From an uncultured archaeon (GTDB taxonomy: Archaea > Iainarchaeota > Iainarchaeia > Iainarchaeales > JAAZKV01), in assembly GCA_964551375.1 (NCBI GenBank), contig CAZKBG010000001.1:690001-722000 (forward strand): 32,000 nt of DNA, read 5' to 3'. Shown piece by piece: positions 3,416-29,473 of the stretch (positions within the stretch are counted from its first letter, which is position 1; every line of letters begins with the position of its first letter). The notes under the pieces were generated by a model. The model had not been told where the DNA came from. It made no database searches and was given only the letters and a program-made list of their open reading frames with translations. The position numbers were made by a program, and so were the translations under genes.

Positions 3416-3475
3416 CTAAATTTATTAGTGTTTAACCCTTTAAAATGCTATGTTTCACAAGTTCTTTGTGATTGG

Positions 3476-4828
3476 ATGGGACTCGGAGACACACTGCGAA
3501 AAGCAATGGACAAAATCCAGGGCGCGGCAACAGTAGACAAGGAAACTGTTAAAGAAGCTATTAAAGAAATACAAAGAGCGCTCATTGCGGCAAACGTGGA
3601 CACCACAACTGTTTTTGCCATCTCAAAAAAAATTGAAGAAAATGCGTTTAGCGAACTAAAAGGACAACTATCAAGAAGAGAGCATGTAACAAAAGTAACT
3701 TATGACGCTCTAATCGAAATGCTTGGCGGATTAAAAGCTCCAATTGAGCCAAAAAAAATATTATTATGCGGATTATTCGGCTCCGGAAAAACAACTGCTG
3801 CGGGAAAACTTGCTTTATTTTATAAAAAACGCGGGAAAAAGGTCGGAGTAATCTGCGCGGACACATTTAGACCTGCCGCGTTTGAACAACTGCAAACTAA
3901 TGCAAAACTTGCTGGCGCTGAGTTCTTCGGAATCAAAGGCGAAGAAAACGCAGGCAAAGTTGTGAGAGAAGGAATGAAAGCTTTGAAAGAAAATGATATT
4001 ATAATCTGCGATTCAGCAGGAAGAAGCGCGCTTGATGATGAACTTGTAAAAGAAATAAAAGAAATTGAAGATGTGTTCAAGGGAGACGAAAAATGGCTTG
4101 TAATCGGAGCAGATATTGGAAACCTTGCAAAAAAGCAGGCGCAGGCATTTCATAAAGCCGTTGGGATTAACGGCGTAATAATTACAAGAATGGATGGAAG
4201 CAGCAAAGGAGGAGGGGCTCTTGTTGCATGCAATGAAACAGGAGCAAGCGTGTACTTTATTTCAACAGGGGAGAAAGTAAATGATTTTGAAGCATTTGAC
4301 GCCAATAGATACTTATCAAGAATAATGGGATACGGGGACCTTGAAGGACTGCTTGAGAAAGCAAAAGAAGCGGACCTTGAAAATATGAACCCTGAAGAAA
4401 TGCTCAAAGGAAATTTTAATCTTCGAATGTTCTATGAGCAATTAAAAGCAACAAAAAAAATGGGGCCTTTAAATAAAGTTGCGGAAATGATCGGATTAAG
4501 CGTAAAAATGCCAAAAGAAATTTTAGAACAAGGACAGGACAAGCTGGATTCATTCAAAATAATAATTGACTCCATGACCGAGCAGGAAAGAGTGAACCCT
4601 GAAGTTTTAAATAGAAATAGAATTGAAAGAATCGCAAAAGGGGCAGGAGTTCATATTGAAGATGTGAGAGAGCTCATCAAGCAGTACAAGCAAATGAAGA
4701 AAATGTTTAAGAAGTTCAAAAATATCCAAAGCGAAAAAGCGATGAAAAACTTCGGCGAAAAGGGCTTAGCTGATGTAATGAGGCAGATGCAGGGAAGAAA
4801 AATGGCTAAAAAGCTGCGCCTTAAATAA
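3476..4828 (+). CDS. srp54: Signal recognition particle protein SRP54
   Basis: GLFGSGKTTAAGKLA, DTFRPAAFEQL, DSAGRS and TRMDGSSKGG form the NG domain. The C-terminal M domain is Met-rich and basic (MGPLNKVAEMIG..., KQMKKMFKKF). The ATG at 3476 (MGLGDTLRKAMDKI) is preferred over the GTG-opened ORF at 3428. Confidence 0.95.
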   Translation: MGLGDTLRKAMDKIQGAATVDKETVKEAIKEIQRALIAANVDTTTVFAISKKIEENAFSELKGQLSRREHVTKVTYDALIEMLGGLKAPIEPKKILLCGLFGSGKTTAAGKLALFYKKRGKKVGVICADTFRPAAFEQLQTNAKLAGAEFFGIKGEENAGKVVREGMKALKENDIIICDSAGRSALDDELVKEIKEIEDVFKGDEKWLVIGADIGNLAKKQAQAFHKAVGINGVIITRMDGSSKGGGALVACNETGASVYFISTGEKVNDFEAFDANRYLSRIMGYGDLEGLLEKAKEADLENMNPEEMLKGNFNLRMFYEQLKATKKMGPLNKVAEMIGLSVKMPKEILEQGQDKLDSFKIIIDSMTEQERVNPEVLNRNRIERIAKGAGVHIEDVRELIKQYKQMKKMFKKFKNIQSEKAMKNFGEKGLADVMRQMQGRKMAKKLRLK

Positions 4829-18638: not shown

Positions 18639-19277
18639 ATGGATGAAGAAGTGCTTGTTATAAAAAGAACCAACTTATTTGGAGAAAAAGATGAAACTGC
18701 TTTTACTGGATTCAAAACTCCAAGTGAATTTAAAATAAGCGAAACTGCAATGAAAAGCGCGCACTTTAGGCTTAGAAAAACAACAAGCCCCAATCAAGAC
18801 AAGCCCGCTGAAGAGGATGCTGATTACAAACAAATCATACCTTATATGATACTCACACACAAAGGAAAAATATTCTGCTTTAAACGAACTCCAAAAGGAA
18901 CTGAAACCCGGCTTCATAACAAATATTCAGTCGGACTTGGAGGACATATTAACAAAATTGATGTTAATGACAAGAAGAATTTGATTGAAGAAGGAATGAA
19001 ACGCGAATTTGAAGAAGAAGTAAAATACAGCGGAAAAACAAAAACAAAAATATTAGGATATATTAATGACGATTCAGGGGATGTTGAAAAAGTACACTTT
19101 GCAATAGTGTACCAAATAGAACTTGAAAATGATGAAGTGACGCTTGGGGAAGAAAAATTAACTGATGGAAAAATGTGCACTTTAAATGAAATCATAGAAA
19201 AAAAAGAATTTCTTGAAAACTGGAGCAAAACCACTATGAGCGCGCTGGAAAAATCAAATAATTCTCTAATAAAATAA
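18639..19277 (+). CDS. Nudix-family hydrolase (divergent Nudix box)
   Basis: GLGGHINK ... EEGMKREFEEEV contains the REUxEE core of the Nudix box. The upstream KQIIPYMIL...RLHNKYSVG pattern is typical of one Nudix subgroup. Confidence 0.65.
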   Translation: MDEEVLVIKRTNLFGEKDETAFTGFKTPSEFKISETAMKSAHFRLRKTTSPNQDKPAEEDADYKQIIPYMILTHKGKIFCFKRTPKGTETRLHNKYSVGLGGHINKIDVNDKKNLIEEGMKREFEEEVKYSGKTKTKILGYINDDSGDVEKVHFAIVYQIELENDEVTLGEEKLTDGKMCTLNEIIEKKEFLENWSKTTMSALEKSNNSLIK

Positions 19278-27251: not shown

Positions 27252-27557
27252 TCACTTTGTTAAAGATTCCTTCTTTTTAATTTCCTTCTCAAGCGTCTTA
27301 AGAACACGCTGAACAACTTCTAAAAGCTGCCAATCAGTGTGCTCTGCAAAAAAAGTACCCCTTCCAAGAACTGCTTTTGCATGAATTTCATGCTGGGCGC
27401 GCAAGCCCCCTTTCTTATACTGTTTAAGCGAAAGCTGCAACTCCACATCAGGACCCACTTTTTTTACAAAATGAGCAATAGCCTTGTTAAACAATTCCAA
27501 GTCAACTTCATCAAGCTCAGGGAACTTAACTAATTTTACATTTGCCGGAACATCCAT
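27252..27557 (-). CDS. HPF/RaiA (ribosome hibernation/S30AE)-like protein
   Basis: 101 aa with a predicted beta-alpha-beta-beta-beta-alpha layout. The sequence pattern parallels bacterial HPF/YfiA: VKLVKF...DLELFNKAIAHFVKKV...VELQLSLKQ...HEIHAKAVLGRGTFFAEHTDWQLLEVVQRVLKTLEKEIKKK. This was assigned by eye only. Confidence 0.5.
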   Translation of the reverse strand: MDVPANVKLVKFPELDEVDLELFNKAIAHFVKKVGPDVELQLSLKQYKKGGLRAQHEIHAKAVLGRGTFFAEHTDWQLLEVVQRVLKTLEKEIKKKESLTK

Positions 27558-27706
27558 AAAAACACCACATCCAAAAAAGATAGAACTCTTAATAAAATTA
27601 GTTCAATTAGTTTAAAAAAAGATTGAAAAGCCAAACAAAACGCGCAAAAAAAGTGAAAACTGCCCGCGCCAGAAAGGTATTTAGTTATTACAACACAGCA
27701 TATATT

Positions 27707-29473
27707 ATGCAAAACTGCCCGAAAGAATACTCTAAACTTGCAAATACCGCAGTCAACCTTGCAAAAGAAAAGGGAGTAAAAAACTCCACGCTTGAAAGGA
27801 CTTGGAGAGTCGCCATGGATTTGTGCGATAAACAACTCCCTATTTCAGCAATCATTGCGGAAATAATAAAAGAAATCCCTCAAGAAAATATTTCTGAAGA
27901 AGAACTAATCAAACTATTTGGAAAAGAAGCGGTTGATATTTCAAATTATGTCAGACAGCTTAATTCAGTAATACAAAGCAATTACTTAAGAGTGCCTACT
28001 GAAACGCTGAATTCAATAATTCTTTCCATACCAAAGGACTTTCAGCCGATAATTTTAATGATTGCTGATGTAAGCGACATGCTTGAATATAATGACAAAA
28101 GCGGGCTTGAGAAAAATTTTGCAAAAAAAGCTGAAGAAATATGGTTTCCGCTCGCAACAAAACTTGGGCTTAGCAACTACGCATGGAAACTACAGGATTA
28201 CAGTTTTAGAGCAATAAACCCTGAAGGATACGCTAAAGTCAATATGCTTGTGAATAAAGACAGAAAAGCAAGAGAACAATTAATTAAAGATGTCATAAAC
28301 GAAATGCAAAAACTTTTAGCCGGAAAAATGAAAGCAAGGATTATGGGAAGGCCAAAAACACTCAAATCAATTCATGACAAGATGAAAAAAAAACCGTTCT
28401 CAAACATACATGATATTTACGGAATAAGAATAATCTGCGACAAAGAAAAAGAATGCTACGAAGCTTTGGGATATGCGCACTCAAAATATGAAATCATACC
28501 AGAATCTTTTGATGATTATATTACAAAGCCCTGGGCTGACGGATACCAGAGCATACATACCGCTGTGCGAAGAGGAGAAGATATTATTGAAATACAAATA
28601 CGAACATGGACGCACCACTTGCGTTCAATCTCTGATAGGTACTGGAATTACAAAAAAATAATGAAAGACAAGGAATTTGAGAAAGAACTAAGCTGGGAAA
28701 GACAGCTCTTAGAGTGGCAGAAGAACGAATCAGGAACTGGCTTAGGGAAAAAAATCAGCGGACAAAAAATATTTGCGTTTACTCCTAAAAATGAAGTAAT
28801 TGCGATGCCAAACGGAGCGACAGTGGTTGATTTTGCATTTGCAGTGCACACGGATATTGGCAAAAACATGGAAGGGGCAAAAGTCAACGGCAAAGTTGTC
28901 CCAATTGAAACTAAGCTCAAAAACTTGGACAGAGTTGAAATTATAACAAATCAAAAACCCCAGATGAAGAAAAACTGGATAGGGTTTGTAATAACAGAAA
29001 AAGCAAAACAAAAAATCAAATCAGTATTCGGGCTTAAGAGCATAAAAAAACCCGCTGCGCAAATAGGAATAAATGACATTAAAAAAATAAAAATGGCAGA
29101 ATGCTGCAACCCGCTCCCGGGAGAAGACGTAATAGGAGTAAAAACCACAAAAAGAAAAATAATAGTGCACAAAAAAGACTGCCCAAATATAAAAAAGATG
29201 GATAAATCCAAATTAATTGAAATAGGATTTGAAAGAGACAAAGGAAAAACACAAATAAGAGTGAACGTGCTTGACAGGCCAGGAATACTTCCCGAAATAC
29301 TTGACGAAATTAAAAAAGGTGGCGCAACTTTAATCAACACAAATTTCAAAATAAAGAAAACTGGATATGCTGAAGCAATATTTGGGATTGAAATATCAAG
29401 CGCCTCAAAACTTGACAAGTTAATTGAAAGAATTGAACAAATTCCGGGCGTTATGGGCGCTGAAAGACTGTAA
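27707..29473 (+). CDS. Long RelA/SpoT homologue: degenerate hydrolase domain, (p)ppGpp synthetase, TGS, Cys-rich zinc-finger-like and ACT regions
   Basis: Synthetase motifs are GRPKTLKSI, IHDIYGIRI, FDDYITKPWADGYQSIHTAV and IIEIQIRT. The TGS domain is IFAFTPKNEVIAMPNGATVVDFAFAVHTDIGKNMEGAKVNGKVVPIETKLKNLDRVEIIT. The Cys-rich motif is AECCNPLPGEDVIGV...IIVHKKDCPNI, and the ACT-like end is IRVNVLDRPGILPEILDEI. The N-terminal region aligns to the HD domain (LMIADVSDM, EEIWFPLATKLGLS) but lacks the His-Asp catalytic residues. The ORF opens at a TTG at 27623; the first ATG is at 27707. Confidence 0.85.
   Translation: MQNCPKEYSKLANTAVNLAKEKGVKNSTLERTWRVAMDLCDKQLPISAIIAEIIKEIPQENISEEELIKLFGKEAVDISNYVRQLNSVIQSNYLRVPTETLNSIILSIPKDFQPIILMIADVSDMLEYNDKSGLEKNFAKKAEEIWFPLATKLGLSNYAWKLQDYSFRAINPEGYAKVNMLVNKDRKAREQLIKDVINEMQKLLAGKMKARIMGRPKTLKSIHDKMKKKPFSNIHDIYGIRIICDKEKECYEALGYAHSKYEIIPESFDDYITKPWADGYQSIHTAVRRGEDIIEIQIRTWTHHLRSISDRYWNYKKIMKDKEFEKELSWERQLLEWQKNESGTGLGKKISGQKIFAFTPKNEVIAMPNGATVVDFAFAVHTDIGKNMEGAKVNGKVVPIETKLKNLDRVEIITNQKPQMKKNWIGFVITEKAKQKIKSVFGLKSIKKPAAQIGINDIKKIKMAECCNPLPGEDVIGVKTTKRKIIVHKKDCPNIKKMDKSKLIEIGFERDKGKTQIRVNVLDRPGILPEILDEIKKGGATLINTNFKIKKTGYAEAIFGIEISSASKLDKLIERIEQIPGVMGAERL

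Follow-up and report, generated by a model that had tools for sequence, protein, structure and literature searches.

How does an archaeon that carries a stringent-response-type enzyme make its signal, and how is that signal reset? The question is raised by a 32,000-nucleotide stretch of DNA (hereafter the window) from an uncultured Iainarchaeota (DPANN) archaeon of the order Iainarchaeales (GenBank assembly GCA_964551375.1, contig CAZKBG010000001.1, positions 690,001 to 722,000 of the forward strand), in which one gene encodes a long RelA/SpoT homologue (RSH). The source genome measures 1.09 Mb and is 93% complete. The gene surroundings are archaeal (RadA, TGT, a KaiC-like ATPase), and close homologues bear the names Candidatus Iainarchaeum or Diapherotrites. 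A first-pass annotation, made from the letters of the window, had described the protein as a RelA-type monofunctional synthetase with a lost hydrolase and an altered helix behind the synthetase. We consider it rather probable that the protein is indeed a monofunctional, RelA-like long RSH, of the type with a dead hydrolase and an intact synthetase (hS), and that it operates by the mechanism proposed below. Judged by its sequence, it most likely works like RelA without being a member of the RelA family.

27707..29473, plus strand: long RSH gene, paralog 1 type (hS), 588 aa plus stop

The open reading frame was listed from TTG 27623 to 29473 (616 aa). Because the public database calls a protein of 588 aa from ATG 27707, and relatives lack the 28 extra N-terminal residues and align only from about that ATG, translation most likely begins at ATG 27707 and not at TTG 27623. 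A Pfam search of the protein returned the domain order HD_4 (weak), RelA_SpoT, TGS, zinc-finger domain (ZFD) and ACT, with RelA_SpoT (PF04607) at 95 bits against a curated threshold of 27. NCBIfam places it in the spoT_relA family, yet under every curated cut-off. Among solved structures, the closest by sequence are those of E. coli RelA on the ribosome and of mycobacterial Rel. An AlphaFold AF2 model built from 120 homologues reached a pLDDT of 88.6 and a pTM of 0.80. Foldseek listed ribosome-bound E. coli RelA among the best fold matches of this model, together with 7qpr, and superposed the N-terminal half best on T. thermophilus Rel 6s2u (TM 0.76), which represents the post-catalytic synthetase state (PMC7983052).

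Can the enzyme hydrolyse what it makes? The features of its N-terminal domain are as follows.

27707..28321, plus strand: pseudo-hydrolase (HD_4-like) all-helical domain; HD_4 26.8 bits, AF2 helices 6-204 with pLDDT >90
27794-27823, plus strand: ERTWRVAMDL, a string in the pseudo-HD domain
27797..27883, plus strand: lost hydrolase positions R31 (His of HP), K55-E56 (HD) and P58-Q59 (ED), from alignments
27851-27886, plus strand: IIAEIIKEIPQE, a string in the pseudo-HD domain
28055-28081, plus strand: LMIADVSDM, an HD-flanking helix
28067..28081, plus strand: D121-V-S-D-M in place of D-R-x-H-N, only the Asp kept, from alignments
28133-28180, plus strand: EEIWFPLATKLGLSNY, an HD-flanking helix

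All strings quoted in the first-pass annotation were located in the window at the positions it had given. Its claim that the hydrolase residues are lost is confirmed by alignment to Rel and SpoT, in which no HD dyad, no ED pair and no DRxHN set appears. When the protein is aligned by HMMER to bifunctional mycobacterial Rel, LLHDTVED faces IIKEIPQE. In a MAFFT alignment with E. coli SpoT and RelA, the His of HP becomes R31, H72 becomes K55, D73 becomes E56, E76 becomes P58, D77 becomes Q59 and DRxHN becomes DVxDM; opposite the Arg of the R.SGEPY motif the alignment has a gap. The HD_4 model scores 26.8 bits on the protein (cut-off 27.2) and 30.4 bits in the genome search, compared with 147.6 bits for the pseudo-HD domain of E. 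coli RelA. The fold is kept, as had also been proposed from the flanking helices: these are retained, the AF2 model gives a confident all-helical N-terminal domain, and it superposes on Rel N-terminal domains. A structural pseudo-enzyme with a dead hydrolase is supported by this combination of sequence and predicted fold. It is barely credible that the degenerate HD domain still hydrolyses the alarmone with non-canonical residues and leaves the enzyme bifunctional. The retained fold, the kept D121 and the pattern H...HD...(D/E), which some genera of the window's family retain, would fit such an activity. Nevertheless, three of the four metal-ligand positions are taken by Arg, Lys and Glu, the ED pair and the R/H/N residues are gone, and the domain is the least conserved and fastest-evolving part of the protein (7 of 185 positions invariant in the window's family).

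Whether the protein can make an alarmone depends on its second domain, in which the following elements were placed.

28322..28741, plus strand: synthetase (RelA_SpoT) domain; PF04607 95 bits, 50 of 160 positions invariant in the family
28346..28357, plus strand: GRPK (equivalents of RelA G251, R252 and K254), ATP side; invariant in 92/92
28409..28435, plus strand: HDIYGIRII, with the catalytic Asp (RelA D275) and Arg (R280); invariant in 92/92
28502..28519, plus strand: E-S-F-D-D-Y, of which S-F-D-D is in register with EXDD/RXKD, from alignments
28586..28606, plus strand: IEIQIRT, with the catalytic Glu (RelA E335), Gln and Arg; invariant in 92/92

The synthetase motifs GRPK, D..G.R, xFDDY, YQSIHT and E.QIRT are all present. 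Twelve residues of the ATP side and the catalytic centre (G251, R252, K254, D275, R280, D308, Y319, H323, E335, Q337, R339 and T340 in RelA numbering) are invariant in all 92 sequences of the family, which agrees with the earlier claim of an intact synthetase set. The same check against RSH references that found no intact HD catalytic set found every essential synthetase residue. In RelSeq, the adenine of ATP is stacked between R241 and R269 (PMC7983052), and the G251E exchange abolishes synthesis by RelA (PMC4154780). The assignment of the motif to the EXDD class holds for its acidic DD and not for its strict register, as the aligned residues read S-F-D-D with the Glu one residue upstream of the E/R position.

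The C-terminal half contains the domains by which a RelA-like enzyme would sense the ribosome and its tRNA.

28766..28948, plus strand: TGS domain with an invariant His (RelA H432 equivalent, H381); PF02824 65.8 bits
28949..29086, plus strand: AH-domain remnant of ~46 aa, two short helices and a disordered stretch, from Pfam and AF2
29087..29206, plus strand: zinc-finger / ribosome-intersubunit domain (CC..P.PG...H...C), the most conserved part of the RSH
29243..29470, plus strand: ACT/RRM domain; PF13291 (ACT_4) 47.8 bits

The TGS His, which we take to read the tRNA CCA end as RelA H432 does, is invariant in 121/121 paralog 1 sequences, and the CC...H...C motif is nearly invariant. The RelA_AH_RIS model matches at an E-value of only 0.021 (profile positions 90-181). 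The protein had been described as compact, and the distance from TGS to the CC of the zinc finger is indeed ~50 aa, compared with ~146 aa in E. coli RelA. Within the window's family, the entropy per domain is 0.66 for the ZFD, 0.99 for TGS, 1.09 for the synthetase and 2.08 for the pseudo-HD domain.

Is the protein then a RelA? The phylogeny was computed carefully with IQ-TREE (87 rows, 620 columns, unrooted), leaving out five mis-extracted bacterial open reading frames with very long branches, two very divergent archaeal copies and two duplicates. Three clades were supported: paralog 1 (100/97), a second archaeal long RSH named paralog 2 (100/100), and one that unites every bacterial long RSH sampled (100/99). 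Among its members are E. coli RelA and SpoT, a 12-member proteobacterial RelA clade, Actinomycetota, Clostridia, Chloroflexota and Myxococcota. The NF008124 model (GTP diphosphokinase, RelA of Beta/Gammaproteobacteria) gave 278.6 bits against an equivalog cut-off of 728, and the models for bifunctional Rel/SpoT also stayed under their cut-offs (TIGR00691, 367 vs 499 bits; NF008303, 244 vs 947 bits). In place of the EXDD motif and the RelA-subfamily helix AAHW.YK (H354), the protein has S-F-D-D, a Tyr and a two-residue deletion. Membership in proteobacterial RelA was rejected because the archaeal clade lies outside the sampled bacterial long RSHs and the score lies below the NF008124 cut-off. 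The functional part of the RelA-type description, with its dead hydrolase and intact synthetase, therefore stands, and the family part does not. As paralog 1 forms a separate archaeal clade, it is not a transferred RelA, and its loss of the hydrolase is convergent with that of RelA. The tree is compatible with a single acquisition and a later duplication within the archaeal lineage but, being unrooted and made of three clades, cannot prove it; bacterial sampling is limited, and the two long archaeal stems may attract each other.

What became of the hydrolase? Orthologues of the RSH are present in 37/41 related genomes. A phylum-wide search for long RSHs in 215 genomes revealed two of them in most families of the order. 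The ED pair and the H/N residues are missing throughout paralog 1, which retains the acidic DD motif together with the synthetase set. Paralog 2, which is ~40% identical to bacterial bifunctional Rel, has intact hydrolase residues in 22/22 sequences, HD_4 scores of 121-155 bits and a basic K.KD motif, and it is devoid of any AH/RIS/ZFD region. Its synthetase is dead, since G251, R252, R280 and Q337 are lost and E335 is replaced by Lys in 19/22. Examples from sister families are listed here.

L017:1098-2885, plus strand: paralog 2
L018:1646-3478, minus strand: paralog 2
L019, L020 and L021: further loci of paralog 2

Set against this dead site, the conservation of paralog 1, far higher in the synthetase, TGS and ZFD than in the pseudo-HD domain, is the pattern of a working, ribosome- and tRNA-sensing enzyme, as far as sequence comparison can tell. 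The ancestor of the order paired the synthetase with a second, hydrolase-only long RSH, and the window's family lost that partner. All 38 genomes of this family were searched; they contain paralog 1 only, and neither an RSH-type hydrolase nor a small alarmone hydrolase was found in them, the only HD_4 signal being the weak pseudo-HD domain. In the source genome, at its 93% completeness, there is one RelA_SpoT locus and one HD_4 locus, and no PF01966 HD protein or Ppx/GppA was detected. The earlier remark that the window encodes no obvious hydrolase can thus be extended to the genome and to the family. Genomes with paralog 1 only occur in other families too, including a 99%-complete single-contig genome. 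Both long RSHs are absent from one 22-genome family of the order and from 37/38 genomes outside the main family group, which confines the system to part of the phylum. One family that mostly lacks both paralogs has a very divergent RSH copy (L022, a 463-aa frame within G026:C1:522500-527500) with a degenerate HD domain, a lost GR.K, a kept E.QIRT and a very long branch; it was omitted from the final tree.

The loss of a dedicated hydrolase draws attention to the acceptor side of the synthetase, where the guanine nucleotide would bind.

28526..28561, plus strand: acceptor (guanine) loop KPWADGYQSIHT; stacking Tyr and His kept, K315->W and N317->D (RelA numbering)
28613..28654, plus strand: remodelled post-synthetase helix HHLRSISDRYWNYK; two-residue deletion, Gly lost, Tyr at RelA H354

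The altered helix noticed in the first reading is real and specific to the window's family, and the alteration removes the residue equivalent to RelA H354. The two-residue deletion is found in 92/92 family sequences, with loss of G350. The position of H354 is occupied by Tyr (Tyr312) in 92/92, compared with His in 27/29 other paralog 1 proteins and in 28/28 bacteria. The guanine loop is loosened only in this family as well (N317 is D/N/K/E, K315 is K/G/W, A347 is I/T), and the positions concerned are invariant in bacteria and in the other paralog 1 proteins. In RelSeq, the guanosine is touched by Y308, N306, K30x and A335 (PMC7983052). Of the corresponding contacts, the query keeps the Tyr and shows N->D, K->W, A->S and H->Y, so that the canonical set is incomplete. 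At the same time, W341, L345 and R346 are newly conserved in the family, which argues for remodelling rather than decay of the acceptor side. H354Y has been reported to reduce ppGpp synthesis by RelA, and E. coli without spoT survives only with suppressor mutations in relA (PMC4154780). Since a Tyr stands at the very position where this exchange lowers RelA activity, the archaeal RSH may be attenuated or re-tuned. Such a change would have followed the loss of the hydrolase partner.

Two other explanations have to be weighed at this point. The protein might be an active pyrophosphokinase with a changed acceptor, which produces an adenine-based alarmone, pGpp or another 3'-pyrophosphorylated substrate. 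The invariant ATP-side and catalytic residues would suit this explanation, as would guanine-side residues that are relaxed or replaced in this family alone beside the newly conserved W341, L345 and R346, and once the acceptor had changed, the cell would no longer have needed a (p)ppGpp hydrolase partner. We nonetheless regard it as unlikely, for the family retains H323, the DD motif and the stacking Tyr (Y319), the substitutions follow no known specificity rule for another acceptor, and other paralog-1-only families, such as that of the 99%-complete genome, keep a canonical pocket. Alternatively, both halves could be inactive, and the protein could be a ribosome- and tRNA-binding regulator that acts through TGS, ZFD and ACT. 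The activity-lowering effect of H354Y (PMC4154780), the additional absence of K315 and N317 from the query, the lack of a hydrolase in the genome and the strong conservation of ZFD and TGS are in line with a double pseudo-enzyme. A dead site, however, would not be expected to keep twelve ATP-binding and catalytic residues unchanged in 92/92 sequences and 50/160 synthetase positions invariant, and the truly dead synthetase of paralog 2 did lose G251, R252, R280, E335 and Q337. This second explanation is, in our opinion, very unlikely.

How, then, could the signal be reset? The Nudix protein at 18639-19277 had been put forward as a candidate, and this proposal did not hold. The gene gives a weak Pfam NUDIX match (25.5 bits) and matches no NCBIfam ppGpp-related model. 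It occurs in 7/38 genomes of the family vs 34/37 for the RSH, and was rejected as a general reset enzyme. The genome-wide search for small alarmone hydrolases and Nudix-type pyrophosphatases yielded none of the former, while nine Nudix-domain genes were found in the source genome.

Contig C1: 529210-529590, 448768-449148, 647106-647453, 63569-63949, 274563-274922, 393630-393959 and 392856-393218
Contig C6: 3247-3585
Window: 18864-19223

The median in the window's family is 7.5 Nudix genes per genome, compared with 3 in two of the families that carry both paralogs. A link between Nudix number and the loss of paralog 2 was considered and rejected, as the number is 2-4 in other families with paralog 1 only and 8-9 in two that carry both.

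Taken together, these observations favour the monofunctional RelA-like synthetase, of which we infer the catalysis, the ribosome dependence and the clearing route. The RSH would dock on stalled ribosomes, anchored by its zinc-finger and ACT domains, and the TGS domain with its invariant His would read the uncharged CCA end of the A-site tRNA. The synthetase would then take the beta-gamma pyrophosphate from ATP and attach it to the 3'-OH of a guanine nucleotide, giving (p)ppGpp, which the N-terminal HD pseudo-enzyme could not hydrolyse. The remodelled acceptor pocket, with its Tyr at H354, two-residue deletion and relaxed Asn and Lys, would lower or re-tune the output, which is probably attenuated or re-tuned in this protein. 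The alarmone might finally be cleared by non-RSH enzymes, for instance one of the nine Nudix proteins, or by dilution.

Several points speak against this mechanism. No specific clearing enzyme could be named, and a synthetase without a recognisable hydrolase is lethal in E. coli unless it is attenuated (PMC4154780). The AH domain, which lines the A/R-tRNA in RelA, is cut to ~46 aa, and binding to the archaeal ribosome is putative. With K315->W, N317->D, A347->S and H354->Y in the query, canonical (p)ppGpp synthesis is not assured. In the other lineages, canonical G251 and H354 are found together in 20/24 genomes with paralog 2 vs 11/26 without it. This is a raw trend, and a test of paralog 2 loss against non-canonical G251/H354 by independent contrasts had five usable pairs and no power.

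Among known systems, E. coli RelA (5iqr, 5kpv), the ribosome-dependent (p)ppGpp synthetase I and itself of the hS type, is the best match in sequence and fold. Both proteins have a dead HD domain that keeps its fold, an acidic xFDD motif and an intact synthetase set, and the TGS His, the zinc-finger motif and the ACT domain are common to them. In contrast to RelA, the archaeal RSH is of independent origin, has Ser for the Glu of EXDD, Tyr at H354 and a remodelled guanine loop, and its AH domain is ~100 aa shorter. Its pseudo-HD domain is also more degenerate (26.8 vs 147.6 bits). The resemblance to bifunctional Rel (RelSeq 1vj7, T. thermophilus 6s2u, B. subtilis 6yxa, mycobacterial 8fr8) lies in the domain order, the residues of synthetase chemistry and the N-terminal fold (TM up to 0.76), whereas the RSH lacks HD, ED and DRxHN and carries the acidic DD and not the basic RXKD. 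In Moraxellaceae, a hydrolase-only SpoT (Hs) stands beside an hS-type RelA; 7qpr is the structure of full-length Acinetobacter SpoT. The reciprocal subfunctionalisation of two long RSHs into a synthetase-only and a hydrolase-only enzyme is shared with the order studied here. The archaeal split is separate, however, its hydrolase paralog lacks AH/RIS/ZFD, and the window's family subsequently lost this paralog. A further parallel is offered by the relA suppressors of spoT-less E. coli, in which a hydrolase-less synthetase is changed at activity-lowering positions, H354Y being one of those named (PMC4154780). Those are laboratory alleles, while the change in the RSH is fixed and family-wide; the parallel would be one of inference, the cross-lineage test having no power.

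Does the neighbourhood of the gene indicate a role? Upstream of the RSH, a small gene is transcribed in the opposite direction.

27252..27557, minus strand: HPF/RaiA-like gene, 101 aa, divergent from the RSH and a conserved neighbour of paralog 1

On its own, the neighbour matches Ribosomal_S30AE (PF02482) with an E-value of 0.013 (16.7 bits, cut-off 23.7). Comparison with E. coli HPF by hhalign gave a probability of 44-52%. Across its family, 12/22 members match Ribosomal_S30AE and no other model (best E 3.4e-5). In a search of the PDB, the family profile matched a 392-aa HPF-domain chain via its C-terminal region, as well as many HPF/RaiA chains (E 0.008-0.4). Members of this family were found in 140/215 genomes of the phylum. 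The gene divergently adjoins paralog 1 in 34/34 genomes of the window's family in which both were located (coordinates read by eye), and lies within ~3 kb of it in at least 30 genomes of other families. This conserved divergent pairing would place the RSH, on genomic context, in a translation-shutdown module. CBS-HPF hibernation factors (HibA, AHA) and stand-alone HPF/RaiA-like proteins have been described, mostly from DPANN, and neither report ties them to an alarmone synthetase (PMC13324472; PMC13728122). The neighbour resembles them in its weak but consistent match to Ribosomal_S30AE.

In a wider and speculative reading, which we think improbable as a whole, the Iainarchaeales would have independently rebuilt a bacterial-style alarmone circuit from one RSH that senses the ribosome and only synthesises, another that only hydrolyses, and a neighbouring HPF-like hibernation factor. 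The window's family would then run it as an open loop without a dedicated hydrolase, its re-tooled acceptor pocket making either a different signal or slow (p)ppGpp that needs no reset enzyme. If true, an archaeal lineage would for the first time be seen to have a stringent-response-like system of its own. RelA/SpoT annotations have been reported in 69% of Diapherotrites genomes and ascribed to bacterial origin, the proteins themselves not being looked at (PMC8407392), and (p)ppGpp-like alarmones are stated to be undetected in archaea (PMC13728122). Our literature search on archaeal long-RSH paralogs found nothing beyond PMC8407392, and no description of two paralogs, reciprocal inactivation, family-wide hydrolase loss, an H354-type change or pairing with HPF. 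The present analysis adds a reciprocal long-RSH split independent of proteobacterial RelA/SpoT, a family that is synthetase-only, a fixed change at a position known for lowering RelA output, and the pairing with a ribosome-hibernation-type gene. Moreover, it supplies clonable proteins with which to ask whether archaea use alarmones, how a hydrolase-less synthetase is tolerated, and in what way a RelA-type sensor fits an archaeal ribosome.

In sister families, the HPF-like domain is found in frames of 380-400 aa next to paralog 1, which resembles the CBS-HPF (HibA/AHA) architecture. Three examples are given.

G028:C48:7708-7998 (L153)
G117:C34:33630-33923
G049:C6:23426-23725

At L153, two profile matches lie inside one frame. 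In a genus-mate of the window's genome, the HPF-like match is spread over two adjacent frames (G017:C65:3284-3427 and 3429-3596), and a frameshift or assembly error is possible. In the window itself, the divergent intergenic region (27558-27706) spans 149 bp and is A/T-rich. A TATA-like element, TTTAGTTATT, is situated ~26 nt before the ATG of the RSH and would fit a leaderless transcript.

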